The position numbers and the translations under genes were made by a program. Of a stretch of 64,000 bases of DNA, positions 11,007 to 62,912 are shown in pieces; the first letter of the stretch is position 1, and each line of letters begins with the position of its first letter. The DNA comes from Candidatus Saelkia tenebricola. Its GTDB lineage: Bacteria; Omnitrophota; Gorgyraeia; Kaelpiales; Kaelpiaceae. The stretch is from NCBI GenBank assembly GCA_030765145.1, contig JAVCDA010000010.1, forward strand, positions 49,087-113,086. Direction: 5' to 3'. The notes under the pieces are model-generated. The model searched no databases, was not told the origin of the DNA, and was given only the letters and a program-made list of their open reading frames with translations.

Positions 11007-11007
11007 A

Positions 11008-12893: not shown

Positions 12894-12897
12894 AGTT

Positions 12898-39016: not shown

Positions 39017-39802
39017 TTAAAACATGCTTCTACCTTGAGCCCCGTCTACAGGAATAGAAGCTCCATTGAGTAAAGCTGCTGCTTGGGAACAAATAAAAAC
39101 AACAACTCGCGCTATTTCATCAGGCACTCCAAACCGGCCCAATGGAAGCTCTTGTTTTATAAAATCCTCAACCTGAGCAGGGTTTTCTTTTAATTCTTTC
39201 TCCCATCCGGTATCAGGTATCATGATTGCACCCGGAGCAACACTATTAAAAGTAATATTACACTGGCTTAAATAAGGTTTTTTAGCCAGAGATTTCATAA
39301 ACGCTGTCTGAGCTGTTTTTGCCATACTAAACCAGGGCCTGGCGCCTGCCTCGCGGCCAAAAATAGAGGTTATAGTCACAACCCTTCCCCACTTTTGTTG
39401 ACGCAGATAAGGAATCACCTTGGTTGTAAACCTGACAGCCGAAAGCACATTTTTGTTATAAACTTCACTCCATACTTCTTCATCGGTTTCCTCAACTATT
39501 TCTTCCCCCCATCTGCCTCCCCCGCCGACATTGTTTATCAAAATATGAATCGTACCCCATTTGGCTATAATCTTTTCAATAACACTGTCTATATCCTTTT
39601 TTTCTGTAACATCTGCCTGCAAGGCTAAGACATCAACACCTTTCTCTTTTAACTCTTTTTCAGTTTGCTTAACCCGTTCGATATTCCGCGAACAAACAGA
39701 AACATTACATCCTTCATCGGCAAGAGCTAAAGCAATGCTCTTGCCGATACCATGCGTACCTCCAGTAACAAGTGCATATTTACCTTTAATTTTTAAATCC
39801 AT
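39017..39802 (-). CDS. Short-chain dehydrogenase/reductase (SDR).
   Basis: KYALVTGGTHGIGKSIA, NNVGG, and the YxxxK region. The true start is probably the internal ATG at 39802 (MDLKIKGK), which has an AAGGAG RBS. Confidence 0.75.
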   Translation of the reverse strand: MDLKIKGKYALVTGGTHGIGKSIALALADEGCNVSVCSRNIERVKQTEKELKEKGVDVLALQADVTEKKDIDSVIEKIIAKWGTIHILINNVGGGGRWGEEIVEETDEEVWSEVYNKNVLSAVRFTTKVIPYLRQQKWGRVVTITSIFGREAGARPWFSMAKTAQTAFMKSLAKKPYLSQCNITFNSVAPGAIMIPDTGWEKELKENPAQVEDFIKQELPLGRFGVPDEIARVVVFICSQAAALLNGASIPVDGAQGRSMF

Positions 39803-39822
39803 ATTTTTCTCCTTTTTCTCTT

Positions 39823-40764
39823 TTATTGAGAGAACACATCTAAAATTGTACTCACAACAGAATCGACATCTAAACCATACAAGCTGCGCATATATTCCCT
39901 GGAGCCGGTTTCGAAACAATGCTGATCCGGAATTGCTATTCGCTTTAAAAAAACATCTCCCCTGGCTTCAGCTAAAACCTCGCTTATAACTGTACCGATT
40001 CCTCCCTGGATAATATTTTCTTCTAAGGTTACTACAATTTTCGATTTATCAATCAGATTTAACAGCAATTCTATATTTAAAGGCTTGATTCTATAAAGAT
40101 CTAAAACTGCTGCCTTTATAGAATGGGATTTAAGTTCATCCGCTACTTTAACCGCCTCTTGAAGCATAATTCCGCCTGATATAATAGTTAAATCACTACC
40201 TTCCCTTACCTTGAAAATTCCACTTGAGAAATCCTTCTCTTTCTGTCGATCTATTAAAGGCAAAACACCTTTCTCAAGCCTTATATAAACGGGTGATGTA
40301 CTTTTATAGGCAATCTGGGCACAGGCTTGAGCAGTTACAGCATTCGAGGGATTTAATATCGTAATTTCAGGAAGCAAACGCATAAGAGCGATATCGCTTG
40401 TTCCGTGATGAGTAGGCCCGTCACTGGCATAAGAAAGCCCGGCACCTATACCTATGATACTTACTCCAAGATTCATAGCACAAATATCGATTTTAATCTG
40501 CTCGTAACATCTAAGCGTTGTGAACGGAATTATGCTGTAGATAAAAACATTCTTATCCACCAAAGATAATCCAGCTGCAATGCTCACCATGTTTTGTTCC
40601 GCAACAGCCATATTTATGAATTGGCTTGGAAGATCTTTTTTAAATTTAGCCAAACTAAAAGCACCCATGTCAGCTGTAAGGAATATTACATTCTTATCCT
40701 GTTGAGCAATACTATACAGCTGATCGAAAAATGCATCTCTAATATCTTTATTCAATGCTTTCAT
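39823..40764 (-). CDS. Split transketolase, C-terminal subunit (pyrimidine-binding plus C-terminal domain).
   Basis: LTADMG, EQNMVSIAAGL. Follows the N-terminal subunit with a 4-nt overlap. Confidence 0.8.
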   Translation of the reverse strand: MKALNKDIRDAFFDQLYSIAQQDKNVIFLTADMGAFSLAKFKKDLPSQFINMAVAEQNMVSIAAGLSLVDKNVFIYSIIPFTTLRCYEQIKIDICAMNLGVSIIGIGAGLSYASDGPTHHGTSDIALMRLLPEITILNPSNAVTAQACAQIAYKSTSPVYIRLEKGVLPLIDRQKEKDFSSGIFKVREGSDLTIISGGIMLQEAVKVADELKSHSIKAAVLDLYRIKPLNIELLLNLIDKSKIVVTLEENIIQGGIGTVISEVLAEARGDVFLKRIAIPDQHCFETGSREYMRSLYGLDVDSVVSTILDVFSQ

Positions 40765-41582
40765 AATTCAAGTTCTTTTTTTGCACGTTCTAAATCTTCT
40801 CCGCGAGGCACAGAATGGTGCCAATCTAAATTACCTTCCATAAAAGAAACACCCTTACCTTTAACGGTATTTGCTATCACAACCAGCGGTCTTTTTCCAA
40901 GCTTATTATGAAACTGTTTACAAACTGAAAGTAACTCTTGGTGAGAATGTCCATCTATGACAACCACATCCCAACCGCAGGAAACCCATTTCTTATCCAA
41001 CGGCTCTAAATCGAGACAATCTTTGAGAAAATCCGTAACACAAATCCCATTTCTATCAACAATGGCAACCAAATTATTTAATTTATGATGGCCTGCAAAC
41101 ATAGCAGCCTCCCAAACACTCCCCTCACAGCATTCTCCATCACCCAATAAAACACATGTGATAAAATCTTTAGCATCCATCTTCGCGCCTAAGGCAATCC
41201 CTGCACCTATTCCAAGTCCATGACCAAGAGACCCTGTGTCCGCTTCAATCCCGGGTATTTTTCTATCCGGGTGGCCTCTGAGAATAGATGTTTCTTTCTG
41301 GTAATTTTCAAGCTCTGAAAGAGCAAAATAGCCCAAATCAGCAAGCACAGCGTATAGGGAAGCTGCCGAATGCCCCTTGCTTAAAATAAATCTATCCCTA
41401 CCGGGTGATTCTTTATTCGTTGAATCAAAGCGAAGTATGCCACCGTAATACAGTGCAACTAAAATATCAGCGCATGAAAAAGCTCCTCCAATATGGCCTT
41501 TACCCGCAGATGAAATCATTTCTAAAACCTGCCTACGCACCCAACGGGATTTTTGTTCTAACTCTAATATGTTTTTCTGCAT
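40761..41582 (-). CDS. Split transketolase, N-terminal subunit (TPP-binding).
   Basis: GHIGGAFSCADIL, GSLGHGLGIGAGIALG, LGDGECCEG. Confidence 0.8.
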   Translation of the reverse strand: MQKNILELEQKSRWVRRQVLEMISSAGKGHIGGAFSCADILVALYYGGILRFDSTNKESPGRDRFILSKGHSAASLYAVLADLGYFALSELENYQKETSILRGHPDRKIPGIEADTGSLGHGLGIGAGIALGAKMDAKDFITCVLLGDGECCEGSVWEAAMFAGHHKLNNLVAIVDRNGICVTDFLKDCLDLEPLDKKWVSCGWDVVVIDGHSHQELLSVCKQFHNKLGKRPLVVIANTVKGKGVSFMEGNLDWHHSVPRGEDLERAKKELEL

Positions 41583-43093
41583 TAGTACTTTTTGAAAAAA
41601 TATACCTTAATATTCTTTAACACCCTTTTTACCACACCTTCTAATTTAGATGTAGTATTGCCTCTTGCTATATTAACAGCTAATCTAACCATTCGTCCAG
41701 GATGTGTTATGAACATAAGGCTGTAAAAACTGACAAATAAAAACAACCTCATTAAAGACAAAGTTAAAGGAGCAAAGTTCTTTGACCAAGATACATTTTT
41801 CGCTAAGTCTGCATAACCGAAAAGTCCAAAGAAGTACTCATCGTTTAATCTGATTCTTTTTCTATTCAATAAATCCTGGAATAACTCCGATCCCGGGTAA
41901 GGAATAAAAGGAAAAACATTAACTTCCTGAAGCCCTTTAGTCGCCAATTTCATAAGCAAAAAATAGGTCTTTAGAAAATCCTTAAATCTTTCCTCAGGCA
42001 ATCCTATGACAATATTCGTGCTCAAATTCATACCAGTTGTTAAACCGTCTTTTACTAAAGAAAACACCTTGTCTGGATTAGATTTTTTATTTACGCTTAT
42101 TAAAACATTTTTAGACCCTGACTCAACGGCAAAATCAAGTTCCCGACAACCCGCTTCTTGCATTAGCTCTAAAACATCAAAATCTAAATCTTCCGTCCTT
42201 AAAGTTGGAAGTTGCCAAGTAATATTAAGCCGACGTTTAATAATATCGCAACATAAATTGACAATGCTTTCTTTAGTAACCATTGCTGTAAGATCAGAGA
42301 AAACAAAATTATCCGCTCTATAGCGGGTGATATAATGCTGCATTTCATCTACAACTAAACTGGCACCCCTTGTAATCCAAGGGGTGCTCCACATGTGGGG
42401 ATTGGAGCAAAAACTACAGCTATAAGGACACCCGCGTGTTGCAAGCATCGGAATAGTACGGCCACGAGAAATATGATAATTCAATTCTCTGGATAGGTAA
42501 TTCTCCATCGGTGTTAAATCCCAGGCAGGGTAAGGGATTTTATCAATGTCTCTGATACGTTCTGCTCTTTGGGTGCAATGAAAATTACTGCCCTTATTGA
42601 TTCTGTAAACCAATCCGCGGATACCAGAAAACTCTTTTTTATTCTGCAGAGCATCAAGAAGCTGTACAAAAACACCTTCTCCTTCGCCAATTACACAGAC
42701 ATCCAGCTGGGGGCAATCTTTCATACAATACTCGGCTAAAGCCGAAACATGCTCGCCTCCTGCAACTAATACCGCTTCAGGGTTAAGTCTGGATACATAC
42801 TGGATCAATTCCCTGTGAAAAACCCAATCCTGGGAAAACATAGAACTGAACCCGATAACATCGCAATCTTTGAGCCGTTTTTTTAATGCAGAGAAATTCA
42901 TCCCATAAACCACATATTTGCCCCTTACAATCTCTGTGCACTCTATATCTTCACCGCACATATCTATAATGTCCACATCATATCCTGCCTTACGAGTTAC
43001 AGCAGCAATATAGCTTATGCCTAAAAAGGGAACCAAGTGTGCCCCCATTAAACCCACGCTATAAGCAGGAGGACGGATTAAGCTGATTTTCAT
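41582..43093 (-). CDS. B12-binding (class B) radical SAM enzyme, third paralog.
   Basis: B12-binding domain plus ATRGCPYSCSFCSNP. Confidence 0.7.
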   Translation of the reverse strand: MKISLIRPPAYSVGLMGAHLVPFLGISYIAAVTRKAGYDVDIIDMCGEDIECTEIVRGKYVVYGMNFSALKKRLKDCDVIGFSSMFSQDWVFHRELIQYVSRLNPEAVLVAGGEHVSALAEYCMKDCPQLDVCVIGEGEGVFVQLLDALQNKKEFSGIRGLVYRINKGSNFHCTQRAERIRDIDKIPYPAWDLTPMENYLSRELNYHISRGRTIPMLATRGCPYSCSFCSNPHMWSTPWITRGASLVVDEMQHYITRYRADNFVFSDLTAMVTKESIVNLCCDIIKRRLNITWQLPTLRTEDLDFDVLELMQEAGCRELDFAVESGSKNVLISVNKKSNPDKVFSLVKDGLTTGMNLSTNIVIGLPEERFKDFLKTYFLLMKLATKGLQEVNVFPFIPYPGSELFQDLLNRKRIRLNDEYFFGLFGYADLAKNVSWSKNFAPLTLSLMRLFLFVSFYSLMFITHPGRMVRLAVNIARGNTTSKLEGVVKRVLKNIKVYFFKKY

Positions 43094-43094
43094 T

Positions 43095-44216
43095 TTATCG
43101 TTTTAAATCAATTGTGCTGCAACAAGCACCGTTTTTATTCTTAAGATACGTTGGATGACTCCACATTTCTCTTATTAAACGCTGAAGCGGCTTTTTTCTG
43201 ACATTGCCAAAAGTATCGGGAAAAGCTACGCAAAGCTGGATATCTCCATAGGGTGAAATATTAAATATCTTGCCGTATAAAGCCTGACAAACCTTTTTCT
43301 TGCGCTTAACAGAATAAGCTCCTTCAATAAAAGCAAAGGAAGGATCAATATTCTCGATTACCCAGAGTTTTTCATCTTCGTTAAGCTCTATCTTCTTCTT
43401 CGCAATCCATTCTCCGGAAATTATGGGGAATAATATTCTTACGGCTGTTGCTTTAAGCTCTCGTGATAAATCAATGATTTTGGTTAAATCGCTTACATCA
43501 CCCGGCTGTGCAAACCCCTCTATTCTGCGCCGGGTTACATAGGTTGATACGATACAAGGAACACCTTCTTGGTGGCAAAAAGAAATTGCTGCCACCGCTC
43601 TCTTATAAATCCCCGGCAAACCCCGCAATTTATCATGTTCCTGTTCTTCTGCGCTATCTAAGCTTATGTTTATACAGCTTATGCCTGCATCTTTTAATCT
43701 TTTCACCATATCCCGGGTCAACAGCCAAGCATTGGTAGTTATTGAAATATACACCCCTTGTCGAGAGCCAAATCTAACCAACTCAACAATATCTTCTTTA
43801 AGGAGAGGCTCTCCACCGAAATAATCCACTTTAGGAATGCTGATTTTAACAGCCTGTTTCAAAAGACTTTTTATCTCATCAGCCGTAAGCTCTCTTTCTC
43901 TATCTACCTCAGAAAAATAATTTGAAACCGAACAATGCTTACATCTGCATTGACAGCTATAGGTCACAGACAGCTCAATAAGCCAGGGTACCTTTTTTTT
44001 AAAAACAGATGTTAACATCCAGTAACGAATCATTCTATATGCTTTTAAAAAAGTCATCCTGCTGAGCCCGACTTTTGAATACAATATTATTTTCCCGGCT
44101 TGTTTAAATACCGCTTTTATCTTTTTATCAATCATATCTTTTCGCCACACATTTATCACATATGTAATGCCCATTACAACACAAAATTCTGGATAATTCC
44201 ACCTTACCGCAGTCAA
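43095..44216 (-). CDS. Radical SAM enzyme with a SPASM/twitch-like C-terminal Cys cluster.
   Basis: SVTYSCQCRCKHC (CxxxCxxC), then a C-terminal CVAFPDTFGN..GACCS. The N-terminus is ambiguous because the ORF overlaps the upstream gene by about 90 nt. Confidence 0.6.
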   Translation of the reverse strand: MTAVRWNYPEFCVVMGITYVINVWRKDMIDKKIKAVFKQAGKIILYSKVGLSRMTFLKAYRMIRYWMLTSVFKKKVPWLIELSVTYSCQCRCKHCSVSNYFSEVDRERELTADEIKSLLKQAVKISIPKVDYFGGEPLLKEDIVELVRFGSRQGVYISITTNAWLLTRDMVKRLKDAGISCINISLDSAEEQEHDKLRGLPGIYKRAVAAISFCHQEGVPCIVSTYVTRRRIEGFAQPGDVSDLTKIIDLSRELKATAVRILFPIISGEWIAKKKIELNEDEKLWVIENIDPSFAFIEGAYSVKRKKKVCQALYGKIFNISPYGDIQLCVAFPDTFGNVRKKPLQRLIREMWSHPTYLKNKNGACCSTIDLKR

Positions 44217-44937
44217 GACATCTCACTTTTTCTTTAAACAATCTCACAACCATTGAATACCCACATATTAAACAAGGAACGGCATGAGTCGAACAAGGTG
44301 CCAAATTCTTAAATCTTAAAATACTCTTTAAAGTGAATAAAAAAGGAAAAGGCAAAGCTTTCCTTACAAGTTTTACATCTCCGGTACAAATAGTATTCAA
44401 TATTCCCGCTTTATCATCAGTCATAACTTCCGTATAGCTGCGGCCAACGAATTCGGCAGCTGTTGTATCAGTAGAAGAAAGACCGGGAATACCCAACTTT
44501 TCAGATACTCTCTTTGCCCGATAGTTATAAATAATTGAAGCGCCTAAAGCTGCATTATAAACCTCTATTGCATCCACAGAAAGCTCAGTTACCTTTTTTC
44601 CCAAGCCTAAAGGCAGGAACGGATGAACCGCAACAGCAATTCCACCCTGCGAATGTATCTGGTTGATTGTTTCATGAGCAGGTTGTAAATCAGCGATTTT
44701 TTCCTTAAGTCCCAGAGCAGTTAAATGACCTTCCTGACTGCATATTTCCTGACCAATTATAATAATAAAATCTTTTATCTCCTCTTTAATCTTAACCGCA
44801 TGGGAGAGGCTGAAAAAATTAGTAATTGCAGCACCGTCTAAATTGTTTTTCCCCAAAGCATATCTTAAATCGTCAGCCTCTATAAAAATTTTGCCTCGCG
44901 ATTCGCTATGGAGATGCAAGTCTAACTTGATAGACAT
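44128..44937 (-). CDS. PHP-domain metal-dependent phosphoesterase with a C-terminal Cys-rich zinc ribbon.
   Basis: LDLHLHSESRGKIF (the HxH of PHP), further His/Asp motifs, and a C-terminal CLICGY..CLDCG..CCNGHYICDKC. Confidence 0.5.
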   Translation of the reverse strand: MSIKLDLHLHSESRGKIFIEADDLRYALGKNNLDGAAITNFFSLSHAVKIKEEIKDFIIIIGQEICSQEGHLTALGLKEKIADLQPAHETINQIHSQGGIAVAVHPFLPLGLGKKVTELSVDAIEVYNAALGASIIYNYRAKRVSEKLGIPGLSSTDTTAAEFVGRSYTEVMTDDKAGILNTICTGDVKLVRKALPFPFLFTLKSILRFKNLAPCSTHAVPCLICGYSMVVRLFKEKVRCLDCGKVELSRILCCNGHYICDKCVAKRYD

Positions 44938-46034
44938 TTTCTACTTCTGGCAATAATTTTAGCCATTTCGAACATTATTCTAAGATAATATTCCGGTCTA
45001 TATATCAAATTATTTGACAAAGGCAACCCCCAGTGGCAATTGCATTTTTCTTTCACAATATTTTTACTGAATTTTTTCATCGAATCCGATTTTAAAATTT
45101 TATTAATATCATAACCGTTCTCTCTAAGATTCCCTACAGAATGCCACAACGGCTCGCATGGGAAAACATCCCCAACTTCATTTACCACAACCACTCTTTT
45201 CCCCGCCTTACATTGTTTATACATATTCCGATTTTTTAAAACCTTTTTTAAGAAATCGTTTTTCGTAATCCGTAAGGCAATAGTAAACAGAGAATGGAAT
45301 TCTTTTATGTTGTCTACAACAGTAGTATTTTCGATTTCATCGCAAAACTTGAAATACTCCTCCCAATTAAAATCAAAAGCTTCTTTATTAGAAACGCTAC
45401 CGTGAGTAACAGAAAAAACTACCCTGTCTAAATCCTTAAAATCTTGATCTAAGATATTAAATAATTCTTTAATATAATTCTGATTATAATGTGAGTACAC
45501 AACACACGCTTTGACTCTTAGATTCCTATATCTGTTTTTCAAAATAATCAACCCATCATACGTTTCCTTAAGTCTTTGAAAACTGTTTTCTAACCCGCGT
45601 ATTTCATCATGAACCGCTTCTGGCCCATCGATAGAAAGCTGTAAATCGACAATCATATCAGGACAATTTTTAAGAATATCTTCTGTCTGTTTTAAGATTC
45701 CCGCTGTAAAATACCCGTTTGTAGGAAGGTCTACTACTAAAGGAGGGGCGTTTTTATAAACCACTTTTATAATCTCAGATAAATCTTCCCTCATAAACGG
45801 TTCGCCCCCGGAAATACCCAGAATATTTATCAATTTTATATTTTTACTTATGTTATCGTATTCTTCTACAGTTAACTCATTTTTAGAACCGGAATTTTTT
45901 TTCATCTCCTCAATGTAAAAACACATTTTACAATTAGCATTACACTTGCCCGTAACAAAGAAAATTATATAGCTAGGGTAATTTAAAGTTCTAAACCACC
46001 TGGGCATTCTTCTCAATGATAAAGATTTCAGCAT
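44922..46034 (-). CDS. Radical SAM enzyme with a SPASM domain.
   Basis: FVTGKCNANCKMCFY, then a C-terminal cluster CEPLWHS..CNCHWGLP. Confidence 0.6.
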   Translation of the reverse strand: MLKSLSLRRMPRWFRTLNYPSYIIFFVTGKCNANCKMCFYIEEMKKNSGSKNELTVEEYDNISKNIKLINILGISGGEPFMREDLSEIIKVVYKNAPPLVVDLPTNGYFTAGILKQTEDILKNCPDMIVDLQLSIDGPEAVHDEIRGLENSFQRLKETYDGLIILKNRYRNLRVKACVVYSHYNQNYIKELFNILDQDFKDLDRVVFSVTHGSVSNKEAFDFNWEEYFKFCDEIENTTVVDNIKEFHSLFTIALRITKNDFLKKVLKNRNMYKQCKAGKRVVVVNEVGDVFPCEPLWHSVGNLRENGYDINKILKSDSMKKFSKNIVKEKCNCHWGLPLSNNLIYRPEYYLRIMFEMAKIIARSRKCLSS

Positions 46035-46077: not shown

Positions 46078-47010
46078 TTAAACGTTGGAAAACTTATTGT
46101 TTTTGATGACCTGATACCCCTTTATCAGTTCAGCAATACCTTCTTCTAAAGATATCTGGGGCTTAAATCCTGTTTTCTCTATTTTTTCATTACTGATAAC
46201 ATAATCTCTTTTGTCCGGATCTTCTGATATATCTGATTCTACTAAAAAAAGCTCCGGGATTTGATTCTTAATCTTTTCGGCCAGTTCCATTTTGCTAAGA
46301 TTAGCATCGCTTAACCCTACATTGTAAGGCTCATTTTTCATCTGCTCGAAATTATTAAGACAGTGTAAGAATACTTTGGCTACATCACGAACATGAATAT
46401 AATTCCTTTTAAAACCGGCTTCAAAAAGCACAATATACTTATCATTCAAGGCGCGATAGGTAAAATCATTGACTAAAAGATCCAATCTCATTCTGGGGCT
46501 GATTCCAAAAACAGTGGCAAGTCTTAAAGTAATACTATTGGGGGAATTCAAAATAACATTTTCCGCTTCTACCTTTAATTTTCCGTAAAGGGAAATCGGT
46601 TTTAACAAGGCTTCTTCTGTACAGTATTTATCTTTCTCGCCTATTCCATATCCACTGTTTGTAGTGGGAAAAATAATGATTTGCTCTTTGCTCCTTAAAT
46701 CATTTATCATTTTTATAGCATCTAATACAACTGAACGAGCTGTGGTGGGATCTTTTTTGCATAAAGGTGAACCTGTAAGGCAAGCTAAAGGTAAAATTAC
46801 ATCTACTTCTTTTATAAGTTTAGCAATCAGTGATTTATCCCGAGCATCACCTCGAATGATTTCTAGATTTTTGTTATTGCAACAATCCAATAAAGGTGTC
46901 TGGTTGTACATAAAATTATCCACTGCAATTATACAATGTGATTCTTTTAATAATGCAGGAACCAAAATAGCACCGATATAACCTGCTGCACCTGTAACTA
47001 ATATCTTCAT
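46078..47010 (-). CDS. NAD-dependent epimerase/dehydratase family protein.
   Basis: MKILVTGAAGYIGA Rossmann motif. About 310 aa of extended SDR. Confidence 0.7.
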   Translation of the reverse strand: MKILVTGAAGYIGAILVPALLKESHCIIAVDNFMYNQTPLLDCCNNKNLEIIRGDARDKSLIAKLIKEVDVILPLACLTGSPLCKKDPTTARSVVLDAIKMINDLRSKEQIIIFPTTNSGYGIGEKDKYCTEEALLKPISLYGKLKVEAENVILNSPNSITLRLATVFGISPRMRLDLLVNDFTYRALNDKYIVLFEAGFKRNYIHVRDVAKVFLHCLNNFEQMKNEPYNVGLSDANLSKMELAEKIKNQIPELFLVESDISEDPDKRDYVISNEKIEKTGFKPQISLEEGIAELIKGYQVIKNNKFSNV

Positions 47011-47014
47011 TTTT

Positions 47015-47950
47015 TTATACCCTCTTCTTTAAGTTTTTATACCATTCATACGTCTGATAAATGCCTTCCTCAAGCGTTATTTCCGCACTCCAGCCTAAAA
47101 CATTAATCTTACTGGAATCTAAGAGTTTTTTTAGCACCCCAACAGGTTTTGACTCATCAAAAACTATTTTTCCCCGAAATCCTACTACATCTTTTATCAA
47201 TAATGCTAAATCTTTAATGGAAATATCTTCACCCACGCCGATATTAATAATTTCTGGTGAATCATAATTATTCATTAAAAAAACAGCCGCCTTAACAACA
47301 TCCTCCACATATATGAACTCCCTTAAAGCGATACCTCGCCCCCAAACAACAACCTCTTTATCGCCTCTAATCTTTGCCCCATAAAATTTACTTACCAAAG
47401 CAGCCATTACATGGGAATTTTCTGAATCAAACTCATCATAAGGCCCGTAAATAGTTGCGGGAACTGCTGAAATAAAATTTACGCCATGTTGAAGATTGTA
47501 GGCTTGAGACATCTTTATCCCTGCTATCTTAGATACTGCATAATGAGCGCTTGTCTCCTCTAATCTCCCATTTAAAAAACAGCTTTCTTTAATCGCCTGA
47601 GAGCTATCAGCTGGATAAACACATGAGCTAGCCAAGAAAAGCATCTTTTTCACCTTAAATTCAAAGCTGGACTGTATTATGTTATTTTGAACCTCTAAGT
47701 TGGTATGCATTAAATCTGCAGGGCATTTGATATTTGCAGCTATACCATAAGACTTTATGTGGTTTAAAAAAACATATCCCGGTTTTTCTTTTTTAAAAAA
47801 AGACCGCACTGAATCTTGATTCATTAAATCGACTTCAAAACTAACATTGTCTAAAACATTGATAAAACCATTTTGCTCAAAATACCGAATGAAAGATGTT
47901 CTTAAAATATCCTTGTCTCCTGCAATAAAAATTTTAGAATTTTTATCCAT
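47015..47950 (-). CDS. GDP-L-fucose synthase (Fcl)-like 3,5-epimerase/4-reductase.
   Basis: LASSCVYPA, YAVSKIAGIKMSQAYNLQHG, PATIYGPYDEF. These are all close to Fcl signatures. Confidence 0.65.
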   Translation of the reverse strand: MDKNSKIFIAGDKDILRTSFIRYFEQNGFINVLDNVSFEVDLMNQDSVRSFFKKEKPGYVFLNHIKSYGIAANIKCPADLMHTNLEVQNNIIQSSFEFKVKKMLFLASSCVYPADSSQAIKESCFLNGRLEETSAHYAVSKIAGIKMSQAYNLQHGVNFISAVPATIYGPYDEFDSENSHVMAALVSKFYGAKIRGDKEVVVWGRGIALREFIYVEDVVKAAVFLMNNYDSPEIINIGVGEDISIKDLALLIKDVVGFRGKIVFDESKPVGVLKKLLDSSKINVLGWSAEITLEEGIYQTYEWYKNLKKRV

Positions 47951-47951
47951 A

Positions 47952-49001
47952 TTAAGATTGCCCTTTCATCAAATCAGCCGCTGTATTAATAATATCATCT
48001 GCTCCGGGATAAAAAGCTTCTTCCAAAACATAGGAACTAGGAATGGGGATATCAGGCCAGGTAATACGTTTAATAGGCGCTTTTAGATATCTAAAACCCT
48101 GATCCGCAACAACTGCTGCTATCTCAGATGCTGCACCGGCAATTCCCCAATCAGTATCAGCAATAATTAAATGTCCTGTTTTTTTGACTGAATTAATTAT
48201 AATTTCTACATCTAAAGGTTTTAATGTTCTTAAGTCTATTACTTCTATATCACAGCCTTGTTCTTTTAACTTTTCAGCCGCTCTTAAAGCCTCGATTACC
48301 ATATAAGAGATCCCTACAACTGTAACATCTTTGCCTTCTCGACGGATAAGACCCTTACCAAAAGGAATAGAGTAAAGCTCCCGGGGAACATAGCTTTGGT
48401 GTTTAAACAACCAGCGGTGTTCAATAAATAAAACAGGGTTATTATCGGCAATACTTCTAACTAAAAGTCCTTTGGCATCATACGCTGTAGAAGGCATCAC
48501 AAGACGCAACCCCGGTATATGCATAAACAAGCCGTGTAAAGCTTGAGAATGCTGGGCACCAGACCCCCAGCCCCGCCCAATAACAGCTACGATAACTAAC
48601 GGTACCTGCAATTCGCCTCCGAAAATATAGCTATATTTGGAGGCATGGTTAACGATTTGATCCATTGCTAAAAGCAGAAAATCAGGACGGTTATGAAAAT
48701 ATACCGGCCTCATACCGCAAATAGCAGCTCCAGAAGCTATGCCTGTTAAAGCATTTTCGGATAAAGGGGTGTCAAAAACCCTCTTCTTACCATACTTTTT
48801 ATGCAAATTAAGCGTCATACCAAACATGCCAGTATAATCATCTACGCCTTGCCCCATAACAAAAATACGTTCGTCCTTCCCAAGCACCTGATATAAAGTT
48901 TCTCTTATAGACTCAGACACGTTAAGCTTTCTTTTAATCTTATCCGGATGCTCATCAAATCCGGGCTCTTTGGTTTCAATTAAAAATTTTGTCCAGGGCA
49001 T
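47952..49001 (-). CDS. TPP-dependent 2-oxoacid/acetoin dehydrogenase E1 component, beta subunit-like.
   Basis: RVFDTPLSENALTGIASGAAICGMRPV, DQIVNHASK, HSQALHGLFMHIPGLRLVMPS, DNNPVLFIEH. Confidence 0.75.
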   Translation of the reverse strand: MPWTKFLIETKEPGFDEHPDKIKRKLNVSESIRETLYQVLGKDERIFVMGQGVDDYTGMFGMTLNLHKKYGKKRVFDTPLSENALTGIASGAAICGMRPVYFHNRPDFLLLAMDQIVNHASKYSYIFGGELQVPLVIVAVIGRGWGSGAQHSQALHGLFMHIPGLRLVMPSTAYDAKGLLVRSIADNNPVLFIEHRWLFKHQSYVPRELYSIPFGKGLIRREGKDVTVVGISYMVIEALRAAEKLKEQGCDIEVIDLRTLKPLDVEIIINSVKKTGHLIIADTDWGIAGAASEIAAVVADQGFRYLKAPIKRITWPDIPIPSSYVLEEAFYPGADDIINTAADLMKGQS

Positions 49002-49002
49002 T

Positions 49003-49980
49003 TTATCTGAATAAATATTTTTTTAAATCTTTCTTATTGGGCAATATAGACTCCTTAGCAAATTTAAAAGCTTCGGTAAGTTCTTTGTCTATCGTTTTTG
49101 AAATTTTTGATTTCTTTTCTTTTGTTAAGATATTATTTTTTAAAAGCTTTCTCTCTAAACTTTTGAGAGGGTCTTTTCTTATCCACTCCTTCCATTCGTT
49201 AATATTTCTATAAGTATCTTTATGCGGATCTCCTGCCCCGGCATGAGCTCTAAAGCGATATGCCCTGCACTCAAGAAGCACCGGCCCCCTTCCTCTTCGG
49301 GCACAATTAATAGCTTCTCTTGATTTCAAGTAAACCTCACACACATCCGAACCATCAATTTGATAAGCTGGAATATCAAAAGCCTTACCGCGCATAGATA
49401 TATCAGGATTCGCTTCTCTTGCACTTTGATGTGAACAGACAGAATAGAAATTATTTTCACAGACATAGACAATCGGTAATTTTTTTAAAGTAGCGAAATT
49501 CATACTCTCAAAGAACACCCCTTCTTCAGTTGCTGCATCTCCGAAAAATACAACCGAAACTTTACCGTCTTTTTTCAAAACAGAACTTAACGCCGCACCG
49601 GTAGCAATAGGTATACTGCCTGCGACAATCGCCGATGAGCCCATGTGGCCAACTTTCGTTGCTATTAAATGCATGGAACCACCCCTCCCCTTAGAACAAC
49701 CGGTTTCTTTACAATACAACTCCGCAACCAATTTTTTAACATCTCCTCCTTTGGCTATATAGTGACCATGGCTGCGGTGATTGCTGAACAGATAATCATC
49801 TTTTTTTAAATTGGCACACACTCCGCTTGAGATTGCTTCCTGACCGATACAGAGATGCACCGGCGTCTTCATCTCATCCTTATGATACTCTGCTTCGATT
49901 TTAAGCTGAAGTTTTCTAATCTTAAGCATTTCCTGATAAAGCTTAAGTAAAGTTGTGCTTGAGATAGACTTCATTCTCAT
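49003..49980 (-). CDS. TPP-dependent 2-oxoacid/acetoin dehydrogenase E1 component, alpha subunit-like.
   Basis: IGQEAISSG, GGSMHL, and the TPP motif FFGDAATEEG..VCENN. Confidence 0.75.
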   Translation of the reverse strand: MRMKSISSTTLLKLYQEMLKIRKLQLKIEAEYHKDEMKTPVHLCIGQEAISSGVCANLKKDDYLFSNHRSHGHYIAKGGDVKKLVAELYCKETGCSKGRGGSMHLIATKVGHMGSSAIVAGSIPIATGAALSSVLKKDGKVSVVFFGDAATEEGVFFESMNFATLKKLPIVYVCENNFYSVCSHQSAREANPDISMRGKAFDIPAYQIDGSDVCEVYLKSREAINCARRGRGPVLLECRAYRFRAHAGAGDPHKDTYRNINEWKEWIRKDPLKSLERKLLKNNILTKEKKSKISKTIDKELTEAFKFAKESILPNKKDLKKYLFR

Positions 49981-49987
49981 ATTATAG

Positions 49988-50692
49988 TCAATGCCAATAA
50001 AATTTTTCTTTTAACACTTGCATGAGATATGCCGCACCCCATTTCAGTACTTTTAATTTTCTTTCGCCTCCTATACGAGGAGGCTCATCTCCCGGAATAT
50101 CACAACATTTAAGTTTCTTTTTCCCCGCCCGTACAGATAAAAGCGGCTCAACACCTATTTTAGTGCGAAAAATTCTCTCTTCTGTTTGATAGCTTTCTTC
50201 CCGATCCAAGTCCAACGCTTTAAAAATTTCGCTCTTCCATCCCCTGAATATCACCATTGCATCAGTATAGCGTGCACCGTAAAGCAAATTTATTAAAGAA
50301 GTAAACATCCAGTTCCCAAAAGCTGTTATAACGTCATCATCATAACTCTTAACATCTTTTGCATAACGGGAAACTATCACCATATCATAGCCTTCGCTCA
50401 TTTTCTCTATTAATTCGGGAATTTTCTCTGGAATAGAATTTCCATCCGGACTAAAAGTAATAACAAAATCCGTCTTAACACACTCCATCGCTTCGATGTA
50501 AGCACAGCGTATACCTTCTTTCTTCTGTACTATTAGTTTATATCCACACTCTTTAACATATTTAATTGTCCCATCTGTAGATCCGCCATCAACAATGATA
50601 ATCTCGTCTACCCAGTCTTGGTTTATTTTTGGCATAATTATCTTCATGCCTTCAATTTCATTGAGGGTAAAAACCAATAATGTTACTTTCAT
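49988..50692 (-). CDS. Small GT2-like glycosyltransferase. Paralog of the gene at 38334-39011.
   Basis: MKVTLLVFTLNEIEGM..IIIVDGGSTDGT..SPDGNSIPEKIPEL. The same motifs appear in the same order as in the paralog. Confidence 0.5.
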   Translation of the reverse strand: MKVTLLVFTLNEIEGMKIIMPKINQDWVDEIIIVDGGSTDGTIKYVKECGYKLIVQKKEGIRCAYIEAMECVKTDFVITFSPDGNSIPEKIPELIEKMSEGYDMVIVSRYAKDVKSYDDDVITAFGNWMFTSLINLLYGARYTDAMVIFRGWKSEIFKALDLDREESYQTEERIFRTKIGVEPLLSVRAGKKKLKCCDIPGDEPPRIGGERKLKVLKWGAAYLMQVLKEKFYWH

Positions 50693-50784
50693 TTTATATC
50701 CTGATTTAAAAAACTATTTTCCAAAAACCATTATATAACATATGTATGTCGCTAACAAGACGCTCTAATGCAAGGAAACAAAAA

Positions 50785-50812
50785 ACCCCCGCCTCTTGCA
50801 AAATAGGCGGGG
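50785..50812 (-). terminator. Rho-independent terminator closing the por-fdx operon.
   Basis: Perfect 9-bp GC-rich stem CCCCCGCCT/AGGCGGGGG with a 10-nt loop. On the minus strand it is followed by TTTTTGTTTCC. It lies 20 nt past the ferredoxin stop. Confidence 0.55.
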
Positions 50813-50831
50813 GTATATGGCGTAACAAAAT

Positions 50832-51017
50832 TTATTCCACAACAATTGCATTCACAGGACAATCTTCAACCATTTGTTTAGCATTGCCTTCCTGATCCTC
50901 GGCTAGTACATCAGATACCGCAACAGCCTTATCTTCTTCCATTTTAAAAACATTAGGAGCCATATTAACACAAAGACCGCAACCTATACAAAGCTCCGCA
51001 TCTACTTTAACTATCAT
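50832..51017 (-). CDS. Small 2x[4Fe-4S] ferredoxin.
   Basis: CIGCGLC..CP .. a second Cys region. 61 aa. Confidence 0.75.
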   Translation of the reverse strand: MIVKVDAELCIGCGLCVNMAPNVFKMEEDKAVAVSDVLAEDQEGNAKQMVEDCPVNAIVVE

Positions 51018-51033
51018 AATTCTACCTCCTTTT

Positions 51034-51333
51034 TTACTCCCATACTATTCCGTTTGTTTTAAAAAAATCCCTATCCCCTTTATTAAGTTGAAGTTTTTTA
51101 TGTCTGCCTCTACTTTCATTTACATTCGTTGCCTCAATCGAGGAGCTATGTCTACCAATAATGTACATATCTAAAGCTATATCTCCATCTAAGTTTAATT
51201 TCTTAAGCTTCTTTTTAAAATCTTGGAATTCCTGTGATTTTAAAATCATCTTACCAAAAGCTTTTTTAAGTTTTTTCAACTCTTTATTCAATTCTTTTTC
51301 CCAGCTCACAACTTCACCTCCAACAATAAACAA
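51034..51333 (-). CDS. Hypothetical lysine-rich small protein within the por operon.
   Basis: ORF only. No recognisable motif. Confidence 0.3.
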   Translation of the reverse strand: MFIVGGEVVSWEKELNKELKKLKKAFGKMILKSQEFQDFKKKLKKLNLDGDIALDMYIIGRHSSSIEATNVNESRGRHKKLQLNKGDRDFFKTNGIVWE

Positions 51334-51448
51334 TATTATGATAATCTTAGGTCTTTTACCATTTAGAATTTTTTATTAGTTTCTATTGTTTTAGCAACTA
51401 CCATCCTGAAGATAACTCTGTTGCCTAAAGATAAAAAATCACACTTTT

Positions 51449-52336
51449 TCATTTTTTCAAAATATCATATTTTTCAATATTGTCCGCGACAATACCATTT
51501 AGATATTCTAAAACTTCTTTTACCTCTGGAGCGTCTTTCATAAGGTGCTTAAATCTGCCCTGTATTTTTAAAAATTCTTCTATGGGCTTTAGTTCCTTAA
51601 GTTTCATGGTATTTACAAGTTTCCCGTTTTCATACTCCACAATAGGGAAAAGCCCTGTTTCAACAACAAGTTTCCCCACTTTGTCTGTCAAATCAGCTCC
51701 ATGTCGCCATCCCAGAGGACAGGGAACAAAAATGTGTAAAAACTTAGGCCCTTTTATAGAAAAAGCTTTCTTAACCTTTCTTTCTAAATCTCTAATATAG
51801 CCAACAGATGCAGTCCCAACATAAGGTATGTTGTGAGCAGCGCAAATCGCAGCCATCGTCTTCTTAGGACGCGGATTACCCAAAGAAAGCTTCCCTGCAG
51901 GAGTTGTTGTTGTGCTAGCATAAGCAGGAGTCATACCGCTTCTTTGAATCCCTGTATTCATATAAGCTTCATTATCATACATCACATAAAGTATATCTTG
52001 ACCTCTCTCAAGCATACCAGAGAGAGCTTGTAATCCAATATCTGCAGTTCCACCATCTCCGCCTTGAGCTATAACATTAATCTTATCTTTTTTACCCAAA
52101 TGTCTCAATGCCACCTCAACACCGGATGCAACTGCAGCAGAATTTTCAAAAAGGGAATGAATCCAGGGCACACACCAAGATGTGTGAGGAAACCCTGTTG
52201 AGAAAACCTCTAAACAACCTGTCGCATTTGTCACTATAGTATTACTTCCTGCAGCATTTAAAACAATTCGTGCAGCCATAGACTGTCCGCAGCCAGCACA
52301 GGCAGTATGTCCGGAAACAAATAAATTTTCTTGCAT
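51449..52336 (-). CDS. porB: 2-oxoacid:ferredoxin oxidoreductase beta subunit (TPP-binding).
   Basis: HTACAGCGQ.., GGDGGTADIG. Confidence 0.85.
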   Translation of the reverse strand: MQENLFVSGHTACAGCGQSMAARIVLNAAGSNTIVTNATGCLEVFSTGFPHTSWCVPWIHSLFENSAAVASGVEVALRHLGKKDKINVIAQGGDGGTADIGLQALSGMLERGQDILYVMYDNEAYMNTGIQRSGMTPAYASTTTTPAGKLSLGNPRPKKTMAAICAAHNIPYVGTASVGYIRDLERKVKKAFSIKGPKFLHIFVPCPLGWRHGADLTDKVGKLVVETGLFPIVEYENGKLVNTMKLKELKPIEEFLKIQGRFKHLMKDAPEVKEVLEYLNGIVADNIEKYDILKK

Positions 52337-52349
52337 TAAAACCTCCCTC

Positions 52350-53546
52350 TTATTCTTCTTCTAAAACCATAATGGGTGATTCTTCCTTATACCACTTTTT
52401 TAAATCTATAAACCTTACCGCTTTGGTCTCCTCATCTAAAAGACTAAACATTTCTTTTACAGTTTCCTTTTTTATATCTCTTCCTCCAAGCCCTACAACA
52501 AAACCATTTATAGATTTAGCAGATTTTTTTTCTTGCAACAATGCTGAAATCTCAAGATGTAAAGGACCTGAAGACCCCAAAGAAATCGCCTTATCTACAA
52601 CACCAATCTTTTCAATATCTTTCAATGCTTCATAAATCACATCTTTGGGAAAAGGTCGATAAGCTATAATCCTCAGCAGACCAACGCGCTCACCATTAGC
52701 TCTTAATTCATCAACAGTATCTTTAATAGTTCCTGCAACAGATCCCATCCCTACCAATACTTTATCAGCATCTTCGGTTTTATATTTCTCAACGATTAAA
52801 GGTACTTTCCTGCCCATAATGCTTTCGAATTCTTTTTCTATCCCAGGCAACAGGGCTAAAACTTCTTCCATTGTTTTATGAATTGCATAACGTGTTTCCA
52901 TATAAACATCCGGCGCCCCAAGAAGCCCCATAGTAAGAGGATTCTCCGTATCCAATTTATATAAAGCATCGTATTTCGGTAAGAATTTATCAACTACATC
53001 TTGCTCTACCAGATCCAAATTTTCATAGCCGTGAGAAAGAATATATCCATCCATACAAACCATGCAAGGCAGCATAACATCTTTATTTTCTGCTATTTTA
53101 TAGGCAACGTAATGCAAATCCTGCACATCCTGATTATTCTCTGCATAAAACTGCATCCAACCCGCATCTCTTATTGCCATTGAATCCTGATGGTCATTCC
53201 AAATATTTATTGGCGCTGAAAGCGCTCTGTTTACACATGTTAAAACAACCGGCAACCTCATACCTGCTATATTGAACAAAACTTCACTCATTAAAATTAA
53301 TCCTTGTGAGCTCGTAGCGGTAAAAGATCTTACGCCTGTTGCCGTTGAACCTAAAACAACTGACGCCGCAGAATGTTCTGATTCTACATTAATAAATTCC
53401 GCAGCTAATTCCCCATCGGCAACCATTTCTGAAAGCCTTTCTACTATATGTGTTTGAGGCGTAATCGGATATGCGCAAACAACACCCGGCTTTATCCTTT
53501 TAACTGCTTCAGCAACAGCATGTGAACCTTCCATAAATACTTTCAT
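52350..53546 (-). CDS. porA: 2-oxoacid:ferredoxin oxidoreductase alpha subunit.
   Basis: MEGSHAVAEAVK..CAYPITPQT. Confidence 0.85.
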   Translation of the reverse strand: MKVFMEGSHAVAEAVKRIKPGVVCAYPITPQTHIVERLSEMVADGELAAEFINVESEHSAASVVLGSTATGVRSFTATSSQGLILMSEVLFNIAGMRLPVVLTCVNRALSAPINIWNDHQDSMAIRDAGWMQFYAENNQDVQDLHYVAYKIAENKDVMLPCMVCMDGYILSHGYENLDLVEQDVVDKFLPKYDALYKLDTENPLTMGLLGAPDVYMETRYAIHKTMEEVLALLPGIEKEFESIMGRKVPLIVEKYKTEDADKVLVGMGSVAGTIKDTVDELRANGERVGLLRIIAYRPFPKDVIYEALKDIEKIGVVDKAISLGSSGPLHLEISALLQEKKSAKSINGFVVGLGGRDIKKETVKEMFSLLDEETKAVRFIDLKKWYKEESPIMVLEEE

Positions 53547-53803
53547 TGTTCCTCCTCCTGGACCATTTCAATGTCTTTTTTGGGGCAAATTACAGCACAC
53601 AAACCGCATCCTTTGCAATAATCATAATTAACCTGATATTCATTCTTATTTTCGCCCGTAATGCATCCTTCCGGGCAAATATCAACACACATATTGCAAG
53701 CGATACAGTCCTTATGCAACATTTTTGGTCTTTTTTTCACCCGCCAAGAACCTGTTTTATTTCTTAAACTCGTACCGGGTTTAGAAATGATAGGGACAAA
53801 CAT
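53543..53803 (-). CDS. porD: 2-oxoacid:ferredoxin oxidoreductase delta subunit (2x[4Fe-4S]).
   Basis: CIACNMCVDICP..CKGCGLCAVICP. Confidence 0.8.
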   Translation of the reverse strand: MFVPIISKPGTSLRNKTGSWRVKKRPKMLHKDCIACNMCVDICPEGCITGENKNEYQVNYDYCKGCGLCAVICPKKDIEMVQEEEQ

Positions 53804-53883
53804 TTAATACCTCCTTTTAATGAGTTCATGATTTACGGAGTACTAACGAACGTAAACCATCTGAACGAACTATATAGATTATA

Positions 53884-54435
53884 TTAATTTTCATTTGCCT
53901 TTAAATCCAAAGCATACTGATACCCTTTATGGGCACAAACAGCATTTTTTTCTCCTATTTCACCTTTAAATCTTTCCAGTATCGCACTTTCAAGACTTTC
54001 TATTGTAATTTCTTTAGATATTGCCGCAAATGCTCCCAACACTGCGGTATTTCCTAAAGGTCGGCCAATCACTTCCAAAGCTATTTGATTTGCCGGAATA
54101 GTAAAAATTTTAATATTATCTTTATCTAGTTCATATTCTTTCCCAGAATTAATAATTACAATCCCACCGTCTTTAGTATCGCTGAATACATCCTGACTTT
54201 TCATAAGCGTAGCATCAATAACAAGGGCATAATCAGGATTGTATATTTTAGAACGCATTCTGATAGGATTTTCATCCACCCTGATGAAAGCATTCATAGG
54301 CGCTCCCATTCTAGCAGCACCAAAATGAGGGAAAGCATAAGCAAATTTATCTTCTTTAAAATAAGACCCCCCTACAATAACTGCCGTAGTAATAGCGCCT
54401 TGACCTGCCCGGGCATATACTGTTATTTCTTTCAT
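53884..54435 (-). CDS. porG: 2-oxoacid:ferredoxin oxidoreductase gamma subunit.
   Basis: ARAGQGAITTA..FGAARMGAP. Confidence 0.8.
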   Translation of the reverse strand: MKEITVYARAGQGAITTAVIVGGSYFKEDKFAYAFPHFGAARMGAPMNAFIRVDENPIRMRSKIYNPDYALVIDATLMKSQDVFSDTKDGGIVIINSGKEYELDKDNIKIFTIPANQIALEVIGRPLGNTAVLGAFAAISKEITIESLESAILERFKGEIGEKNAVCAHKGYQYALDLKANEN

Positions 54436-62789: not shown

Positions 62790-62823
62790 GGTAAATCCTC
62801 CTTTCTTATAAGAAACCAACATA

Positions 62824-62872
62824 ATACAACCTGTTGTGTTATGTCAAGAGTAAAATACAACATTTAGTATTA
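62824..62872 (-). promoter_or_regulatory. Two putative NrdR boxes upstream of nrdJ.
   Basis: ATACAACCTGTTGTGTTA (62824-62841, palindromic ACAAC-N2-GTTGT) and ATACAACATTTAGTATTA (62855-62872). Centre-to-centre spacing is 31 bp, which matches the three-helical-turn spacing of known NrdR box pairs. Confidence 0.4.
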
Positions 62873-62912
62873 TTTGCCGAATTTAGGGGGTTTAAAGAAA
62901 TGCTGAATTTTC

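Follow-up and report, generated by a model that had tools for sequence, protein, structure and literature searches.

The 64-kb window analysed here (64,000 nucleotides of contig JAVCDA010000010.1 from Candidatus Saelkia tenebricola, Omnitrophota; all positions are those of the window) contains two adjacent genes for the alpha and beta subunits of an E1-type enzyme that uses thiamine diphosphate (ThDP) and resembles the E1 component of pyruvate dehydrogenase (PDH). E1 alpha (49003-49980), the ThDP-binding subunit, has 325 residues and a PF00676 E1_dh domain (E=2e-68), and E1 beta (47952-49001) has 349 residues and combines a Transket_pyr with a Transketolase_C domain. Both open reading frames (ORFs) are intact, lie on the minus strand at the positions originally predicted and are separated by 1 nt. 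The best relatives in the Protein Data Bank (PDB) are human PDH E1 alpha for the alpha subunit (179 bits) and Geobacillus stearothermophilus E1 beta for the beta subunit (233 bits). Alignments to these PDB sequences, together with an alignment of 56 E1 pairs, show that the ThDP/Mg motif GDA...ENN is kept in E1 alpha, and that alpha His246 (human E1 alpha His263), beta His151 (G. stearothermophilus beta His128) and the cofactor-activating beta Glu82 (G. stearothermophilus beta Glu59) are conserved. Both genes are thus real, intact and, judged by these residues, catalytically plausible, which bears out the original prediction that both subunits carry intact thiamine pyrophosphate and E1 signatures.

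The pair lies near the start of an operon of 21 co-directional genes between 50692 and 27348, which overlap or are spaced by a few bases; gene assignments are from Pfam and NCBIfam scans, and all operon genes are on the minus strand. The first part consists of a small family 2 glycosyltransferase (GT2), E1 alpha, E1 beta, an Fcl-like short-chain dehydrogenase/reductase (SDR), a second SDR, a radical S-adenosylmethionine (radical-SAM) protein with a SPASM domain and a PHP hydrolase. The middle part contains a radical-SAM protein, a B12-binding radical-SAM protein, the N- and C-terminal halves of a split transketolase, a FabG-like SDR, a second small GT2 and an SDR, and the operon ends with two B12-binding radical-SAM proteins, a 765-residue membrane protein, a GHMP kinase, a nucleotidyltransferase, a DegT-family protein and a PMT_2-like protein. 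The neighbours named at the outset, Fcl-like proteins and a GT2, are therefore correctly placed, with the small GT2 upstream of the pair and the two SDRs downstream of it.

The assignment of the pair to a dehydrogenase complex has to be weighed first. The closest NCBIfam model of E1 alpha, TIGR03182 (PDH E1 alpha type y), is matched with 337 bits (cutoff 394), and E1 beta scores 306 bits against NF008854 (cutoff 454) and 325.5 bits against the PDH E1 beta subfamily model NF006667, just above the cutoff of 321. This strong likeness to PDH E1 subunits would suit a conventional dehydrogenase for pyruvate, acetoin or branched-chain 2-oxoacids, to which the pair would contribute E1, while E2 and E3 would be encoded elsewhere and the location of the pair in a glycan operon would be incidental. 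However, a Pfam scan of all ORFs in the window found no lipoyl, E3-binding, 2-oxoacid_dh or dihydrolipoamide-dehydrogenase architecture, and tblastn with two E2 proteins and one E3 from related loci, whose identity had been verified with Pfam beforehand, gave no match in the window better than E=3. The predicted lack of a lipoyl-E2 or an E3 beside the pair thus extends to the entire 64 kb. In addition, a four-subunit pyruvate:ferredoxin oxidoreductase (porGDAB-like) is encoded at 51449-54435, 0.8 kb upstream of the operon and 1.5 kb upstream of E1 alpha, and the organism therefore has another route to oxidise pyruvate. Among the loci retrieved with the pair, tblastn with the verified E2 and E3 proteins revealed 23 in which an E2 follows E1 beta directly, but no E2 in L001-L034 (our locus labels), which hold the closest relatives of the window pair.

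Phylogenetic analysis separated the two kinds of pairs. The set of loci comprised 80 from species-representative genomes, three found by exact-protein look-up and three from plasmids, and the tree was built by neighbour joining only, from concatenated alpha and beta sequences (640 columns). It splits in two: one clade holds all E2-linked pairs that were placed (15 loci), and the other unites the window pair with all pairs from glycan or biosynthetic contexts. This split was recovered in 100/100 bootstraps with 56 taxa, 30 of them in the E2-less clade, and again in 100/100 after addition of the three plasmid loci (59 taxa, 33 E2-less members). None of the 33 loci in the clade of the window pair has an E2 or E3 partner.

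The two clades also differ in specific residues, with 26 sequences, 15 of them with an E2 directly downstream, serving as the comparison clade. At beta 103 (window numbering), all 25 E2-less sequences shown have His, whereas the other clade has Ile, Val or Leu; at beta 105, Arg (25/25) stands against Phe or Tyr; and at beta 143, Arg or Lys (25/25; Arg143 in the window) stands against Ala, Thr or Gly. Trp is found at beta 145 in 24 of the 25, where the other clade is variable. In the C-terminal domain, beta 283 is Glu in 26/26 sequences of the other clade and mostly Thr in the E2-less clade (Thr283 in the window), and beta 307 is mostly Asp in the former and mostly Lys in the latter (Lys307 in the window). 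E1 beta of the window therefore lacks the residues typical of the E2-linked clade and has Thr283, Lys307, His103 and Arg105 instead. The alpha subunits of the E2-less clade share Pro40 (Thr39-Pro40 in the window), Arg188 and Gly248, at positions that are variable in the other clade. Presumably, beta 105 is the position of the active-site Tyr of branched-chain E1, and beta 307 that of G. stearothermophilus Glu285, which contacts the E2 binding domain in the structure of E1 with the peripheral subunit-binding domain.

Gene order around the pair is conserved as well. A recurring cassette, with minor reshuffling, contains the GT2, E1 alpha, E1 beta, a Cj1427-like SDR, the kinase, the nucleotidyltransferase, a B12-binding radical-SAM protein, a His-type dehydrase, the Fcl-like SDR and a large membrane protein. 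Full or near-full cassettes are present in Omnitrophota, Planctomycetia/Sedimentisphaerales, Dehalococcoidia (Chloroflexota) and one metagenome-assembled genome of Clostridia, and cassette fragments occur on short contigs from Nitrospina and Magnetococcales. Two hosts are cultured: Solidesulfovibrio magneticus RS-1 carries the cassette on plasmid pDMC1 (L084; NC_012797.1, ~22.5-39.7 kb), with the E1 pair as DMR_RS21995/22000, and Azospirillum lipoferum 4B carries a reduced cassette on plasmid p6. The GT2 orthologue lies directly upstream of E1 alpha in L001, L005, L007, L033 and L084. The Cj1427-type SDR, which is encoded two genes downstream of E1 beta in the window and directly downstream of it in most related cassettes, is next to or one gene from E1 beta in the window and 10 other loci from at least five phyla. 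Conserved co-location with Fcl homologues, which the original prediction had proposed to look for, was likewise found, as the Fcl-like SDR is part of the recurring cassette.

Further genes of individual cassettes are consistent with these assignments. In S. magneticus, the cassette further includes lhgO, for an L-2-hydroxyglutarate oxidase, together with a gene for a GmhA-like protein with a SIS domain. An lhgO-like gene with 30% identity is found in the Omnitrophota cassette L001 (4518-5603 of that locus), and two Chloroflexota loci have a SIS-like sequence upstream of the E1 genes. By analogy, lhgO would fit recycling of the L-2-hydroxyglutarate released by a Cj1427-type dehydrogenase, and the SIS gene would fit a heptose origin of the sugar. 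E2-less E1 pairs also occur in a glycan context of another kind, in cultured Firmicutes: in a Clostridia subclade (L028 and 11 similar loci, e.g. Ruminiclostridium papyrosolvens C7), the pair lies between ManC and FUT8-like (fucosyltransferase-like) genes, with O-FucT-like genes and an Fcl gene nearby. L028, the one Clostridia locus checked, has an SDR resembling UDP-glucuronate decarboxylase (UXS-type) after the pair. A UXS-type enzyme supplies the 4-keto-pentose acceptor in the eurekanate pathway, and in both settings the gene beside or one away from E1 beta is thus predicted to make a 4-keto sugar nucleotide.

With no E2 or E3 in the 64 kb, the same sugar-nucleotide synteny across many phyla, 100/100 separation from all E2-linked pairs, loss of a beta Glu found throughout the other clade and a Lys where those sequences mostly have Asp, a canonical PDH or acetoin dehydrogenase was rejected on synteny, phylogeny and residue signature, and we consider a conventional dehydrogenase E1 of any of the three kinds highly improbable.

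The enzymes that would supply a keto sugar are encoded in the operon itself. The second SDR (46078-47010) matches PDB entries 6VO6/6VO8 with 395 bits and 56% identity over 308 ungapped residues. 6VO6 is Cj1427 of Campylobacter jejuni, as the published primer Cj1427cF918 encodes RAFKMMKV, which is present in the 6VO6 sequence. Cj1427 is a GDP-heptose C4-dehydrogenase, whose bound NADH is recycled with 2-oxoglutarate to give L-2-hydroxyglutarate, and together with the HS:5 C3-dehydratase it forms GDP-D-glycero-3-deoxy-4-keto-heptose in vitro (PMC10680097). The DegT-family protein of the operon (29154-30344; best NCBIfam match RfbH, 262 bits) is a candidate for a C3-dehydrase of NDP-4-keto sugars that depends on pyridoxamine phosphate (PMP). 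Its entire sequence can be aligned with ColD (2GMS) and with the CDP-4-keto-6-deoxyglucose 3-dehydrase of Yersinia (3BCX/3BB8), and its His184 stands where aminotransferases have the Lys that forms the Schiff base with pyridoxal phosphate; the same His is found in 12 of 13 DegT homologues from related cassette loci. An aminotransferase function was accordingly rejected in favour of a ColD/E1-type C3-dehydrase. A 3-deoxy-4-keto sugar nucleotide is also the acceptor of YerE in yersiniose synthesis (PMC9306805), so that by analogy a 3-deoxy-4-keto-heptose nucleotide would be an acceptor of the same type.

Two further proteins point to a heptose. The GHMP kinase (31033-32028) has HddA as its best match (NF049969, 168 bits, below cutoff) and is kept in the cassette with 55-74% identity, and the sugar-1-phosphate nucleotidyl (guanylyl) transferase (30341-31036) has HddC as its best match (NF049965, 162 bits, below cutoff) and is likewise conserved. 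Since the SDR is 56% identical to Cj1427 and is accompanied by HddA- and HddC-like genes and a C3-dehydrase, the keto acceptor may well be a heptose. The original prediction had proposed, as an example, a 4-keto acceptor made by the adjacent dehydratase/epimerases. A 4-keto acceptor made by adjacent enzymes is supported by the nearby Cj1427-type SDR; an acceptor from the GDP-fucose pathway (GMD/Fcl) is improbable and was rejected, as the window contains no GMD and the SDR is Cj1427-like and without the dehydratase acid/base pair, and GDP-D-glycero-4-keto-heptose or its 3-deoxy form is the more likely acceptor.

The Fcl/GMER-like SDR (47015-47950), which we label a Cj1428-type epimerase/reductase, scores 356 bits against NF047922 (cutoff 500) and 252 bits against E. 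coli GMER. Its similarity is about the same (~232-250 bits) to entries of 345-373 aa deposited as 'GDP-L-fucose synthase' (7ANH, 7M13, 7ANC and 7CXT), which we take to be C. jejuni heptose C4-reductases. The NADPH-binding motif of the window protein is degenerate (N-terminal AGDKDILRT versus AGHxGxVGS), while the Cys/His epimerase residues and the Ser/Tyr/Lys triad are retained. The motif is degenerate in the same way in the orthologues of L004, L007 and L001, whereas those of L002 and the Clostridia loci do not show this change. These features suggest that the protein may epimerise a 4-keto sugar without reducing it.

Taken together, these analyses suggest a pathway in which the HddA- and HddC-like enzymes would make GDP-heptose and the Cj1427-like SDR would oxidise C4 to yield GDP-D-glycero-4-keto-heptose. 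The ColD/E1-type dehydrase would then remove the 3-hydroxyl group, and the Fcl-like protein may epimerise the product. E1 alpha/beta would decarboxylate pyruvate to hydroxyethylidene-ThDP and add it to the C4 carbonyl, giving a 4-C-acetyl tertiary alcohol, a branched nonose. SDRs and radical-SAM enzymes would tailor this sugar further, the small GT2 would load it on polyprenyl phosphate, and YfhO/PMT-like GT-C enzymes would pass it to an acceptor in the envelope.

The steps of this pathway differ in their likelihood. Observations comprise the assigned identities of the genes, their conserved order, the split of the tree and the clade-specific residues. That the pair is independent of E2 and works in the tailoring of sugar nucleotides is very likely. 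We further consider it probable that the pair is an E2-independent E1 alpha2beta2 of the alpha-KADH2 class, i.e. a carboligase rather than part of a dehydrogenase complex, and equally probable that it transfers a C2 unit, as a branch, to a nucleotide-linked 4-keto sugar. The original prediction of a C2 acyl-anion transfer to such an acceptor is in line with all comparative evidence. The choice of GDP-(3-deoxy)-4-keto-heptose as the specific acceptor is tentative, and pyruvate as the donor, the branch position and the final destination are likewise predicted from this context. For the pathway as a whole, we put forward, as a possibility somewhat short of even, that an envelope-glycan pathway widespread in Omnitrophota, Planctomycetota, Chloroflexota, Desulfovibrionia, Azospirillum and others uses an E2-free E1 and GDP-(3-deoxy)-4-keto-heptose to build an undescribed C-branched nine-carbon sugar that is exported on polyprenyl phosphate.

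A related alternative keeps the enzyme class and the glycan pathway and changes the details: the donor may be another 2-oxo acid (2-oxobutyrate, 2-oxoglutarate or a hydroxylated keto acid), the acceptor a carbonyl at C3 or in the side chain, or branching may follow transfer to the lipid carrier or glycan. Donor and acceptor are not fixed by sequence, YerE-family donors range from C4 to C8 (PMC9306805), alpha-KADH2 enzymes branch at C3 or C4 (2025 review), and branching after glycosylation was proposed for Pau11/12 and AviB1/B2 in paulomycin and avilamycin synthesis. On the other hand, the known alpha-KADH2 members are limited to pyruvate-derived C2 branches (2025 review), E1 alpha is closest to PDH-type models, and in 11 loci at most one gene separates the pair from that of a C4-dehydrogenase. 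We regard such a variant as unlikely.

Several points weigh against the assignment to an E2-independent, sugar-branching E1. The likeness of the window pair to AviB1/B2, Pau11/12 and KbDH covers architecture and gene context. The E2/E3 search covers the 64-kb window, and E2 and E3 may be encoded elsewhere in the genome, which would favour the dehydrogenase explanation. The clade signature is also found in a pair from a non-sugar biosynthetic cluster on a Streptomyces plasmid (L085), and we therefore take it to indicate that a pair is independent of E2 rather than that it binds a sugar. The split transketolase of the operon (N- and C-terminal halves, 39823-41582) could be the branching enzyme instead of, or besides, the E1 pair: in the synthesis of miharamycin and amipurimycin, split transketolases have been proposed to attach hydroxyacetyl branches to keto sugars, with all known candidates from Streptomycetes (2025 review). 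Alternatively, it could supply sedoheptulose 7-phosphate. The same split-transketolase gene pair is found in cassettes L007 and L036. Finally, no GmhA or GmhB was found in the 64-kb window, and with HddA- and HddC-like scores below cutoff, the heptose is therefore a substrate predicted from its context.

Locus L085, on plasmid pSGRIFU1 of Streptomyces griseofuscus, contains an E2-less pair near genes for a condensation domain, an acyl carrier protein (ACP), a phosphopantetheinyl transferase (PPTase) and ketosynthases, without sugar genes, and this pair falls in the clade of the window pair at 100/100. A similar pair, outside the tree, is found on S. albogriseolus pSALBX2 (L087) beside cytochromes P450 and an AMP-binding enzyme. 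The two contexts hint at other acceptor types for this enzyme class. No link to the characterised sugar-branching pairs of Streptomyces was gained from these two plasmid loci, as both are in non-sugar clusters, and a role of beta Arg105 and Arg143 as diphosphate binders was dropped, as L085 shares these residues. The setting of L085 suggests that some E2-less pairs load carriers, and the window pair might by extension load a thiol carrier, such as CoA, ACP or a small protein, with an activated acyl group, from which a sugar would be O- or N-acylated with no C-C bond formed. Neither the window operon nor the conserved cassette contains an ACP, acyltransferase or CoA-ligase gene, however, and we regard this route as improbable here.

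The scarcity of GmhA and GmhB leads to another alternative, in which the pair supplies a precursor, either as a plain decarboxylase or acyloin synthase (giving acetaldehyde or acetoin) or by converting an ulosonic acid to an aldose for the GHMP kinase. The core cassette often lacks both genes, its kinase and nucleotidyltransferase could activate a free sugar, and E1-type enzymes catalyse non-oxidative side reactions, as described for Ao:DCPIP OR (2025 review). SIS/GmhA-like genes nevertheless flank the cassette in L084, L010 and L012. Precursor supply would also leave the Cj1427 and C3-dehydrase partners without a role, and no E1 is known to use cyclic ulosonic acids as substrates. Its likelihood is accordingly small, similar to that of the acyl-carrier route.

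The remaining genes of the operon are linked to export and tailoring of the sugar. The first gene encodes the small soluble GT2 (49988-50692, 234 aa, PF00535), whose best NCBIfam matches are AglJ, dolichyl-phosphate hexose transferase and ArnC, and which is a probable polyprenyl-phosphate sugar synthase. The polytopic 765-residue protein (32090-34387) has ~12 transmembrane-like segments and no Pfam match, but five of its homologues carry PF09586 YfhO, which makes it a YfhO-like GT-C candidate; proteins of similar size close the cassette in L001 and L033. The last gene of the operon (27348-29150) encodes a PMT_2/ArnT-like GT-C candidate with 11 transmembrane-like segments (PF13231, 24.9 bits; cutoff 26.1), and a gene of the S. 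magneticus cassette is annotated as 'phospholipid carrier-dependent glycosyltransferase'. This set of a GT2 and YfhO/PMT_2-like proteins points to lipid-linked transfer outside the cytoplasmic membrane.

An accessory tailoring block, from the radical-SAM/SPASM gene to the two B12-binding radical-SAM genes (34378-46034), was assigned with Pfam and NCBIfam; its genes overlap or are closely spaced and share the direction of the E1 pair, and parts of the block are found again in L004, L007 and L036. Its five radical-SAM genes (34378-37366 and 41582-46034) include three with B12-binding domains (methyltransferase-like) and at least one with a Pfam SPASM domain, which suggests C-methylation or other radical tailoring of the sugar. 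The PHP hydrolase (44128-44937; 84% identity to its counterpart in L004) ends in a Cys-rich tail with several CxxC pairs, which weakly matches MbdU, the model of a metal-binding selenoprotein; the hydrolase is a possible substitute for the heptose-bisphosphate phosphatase. The split transketolase is followed by the FabG-like SDR (39017-39919) and the second small GT2 (38334-39011).

A TTGTTA-17-TATAAT site lies 38 nt upstream of the first operon gene, but promoter and terminator scans gave site numbers not above chance. The 756-bp gap before the operon (50693-51448) holds a 99-aa ORF (51034-51333, minus strand) with no family match. Elsewhere in the window, 4243-14280 contains a type IV pilus/type II secretion-like set (prepilin N-methylation motif, PilZ, T2SSF, T2SSE with MshEN, secretin), which adjoins further GT2 and TPR genes, and the window edge (60540-63929, minus strand) encodes a ribonucleotide reductase large chain with TSCPD and a PolX-like protein (polymerase beta thumb and PHP).

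E1 alpha/beta-like pairs that install, or are proposed to install, pyruvate-derived C2 units on keto sugars include AviB1/B2 (avilamycin eurekanate), Pau11/12 (Plm8/9; paulomycose), EvdU5/EvdS3, the aldgamycin and kosinostatin enzymes and KbDH-alpha/beta (kibdelomycin), the last of which was assayed in vitro. A 2025 review groups such pairs, from ~120 clusters, as alpha-KADH2; it links these enzymes, like split transketolases, to secondary metabolites, and the YerE-like ones to lipopolysaccharide. Sugar branching by enzymes of the E1 alpha/beta class is thus already known. Novelty appears to lie in the prediction of a heptose as acceptor, in the setting of envelope and polyprenyl phosphate and in the breadth over mostly uncultured phyla, and a literature search found no report that ties an E1 pair to GDP-heptose enzymes.

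If the proposed function is correct, the pair would provide the first case of alpha-KADH2-type branching beyond secondary metabolism, and also the first with a heptose as substrate. ThDP branching chemistry tied so far to the antibiotic sugars of actinomycetes would then also serve ordinary envelope glycans in many phyla, and C2-branched heptoses would be a new, predicted class of monosaccharides. The comparison also provides a rule for annotation: lack of an adjacent E2, beta His103-x-Arg105, Arg/Lys143 and Trp145, and no Glu at beta 283 would distinguish these pairs from true dehydrogenase E1. This is relevant to the metabolic reconstruction of anaerobes, to which a PDH would otherwise be ascribed. 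S. magneticus RS-1 (pDMC1) and A. lipoferum 4B (p6) are two cultured, tractable carriers of the cassette, and the substrates for a direct assay have already been synthesised in the C. jejuni work.

Compared with known systems, the pair shares the fold, the ThDP/Mg motif and the catalytic His and Glu with PDH, acetoin and branched-chain E1, but differs by the lack of an adjacent E2/E3, by its separate 100/100 clade and by several beta residues, of which 103, 105, 143 and 145 presumably surround the acceptor channel and 283 and 307 belong to the C-terminal domain. The export genes resemble the CsbB/GtrB plus YfhO and ArnC plus ArnT systems in combining, within one operon, a small polyprenyl-phosphate-synthase-like GT2 with large polytopic YfhO- or PMT_2-like proteins; here, in contrast, no flippase was identified, and the delivered sugar would be a heavily tailored heptose derivative.

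The operon contains homologues of the C. jejuni capsular heptose enzymes HddA, HddC, Cj1427, the HS:5 C3-dehydratase and, presumably, a Cj1428-type C4-reductase. The C. jejuni heptose pathways described in PMC10680097, unlike this one, have no ThDP enzyme and simply reduce the keto group, whereas here the genes of the E1 pair separate the GT2 from the SDRs for heptose modification, and the NADPH motif of the Fcl-like protein is degenerate. The synthesis of yersiniose by YerE/YerF, and the systems of the YerE-like lipopolysaccharide-branching enzymes ErwE and MygE, share with the predicted pathway a nucleotidyltransferase, 4-keto formation, a PMP-dependent C3-dehydrase, ThDP-dependent acyl-anion addition at C4, ketoreduction and an envelope polysaccharide as destination. 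YerE, however, is a single-chain, acetolactate-synthase-like flavoprotein (TPP_enzyme_N/M/C), and the Yersinia pathway uses CDP and a 3,6-dideoxyhexose, as opposed to the two-subunit E1 fold found here and the GDP and heptose predicted for it. This agrees with the original view of a yersiniose-type logic served by a different class of ThDP enzyme, as the pair has the E1 fold and the operon encodes no TPP_enzyme_N/M/C protein. The alpha-KADH2 pairs of antibiotic clusters are similar in consisting of separate E1 alpha (~325 aa) and E1 beta (~345 aa) subunits without E2/E3, which are encoded among sugar-nucleotide genes and beside a 4-keto-forming SDR. They differ in that they belong to secondary-metabolite clusters of Actinomycetota and act on dTDP/UDP deoxyhexose or pentose scaffolds, whereas the pair described here is found in an Omnitrophota host, with a predicted GDP-heptose scaffold and a polyprenyl-phosphate/GT-C route to the envelope.

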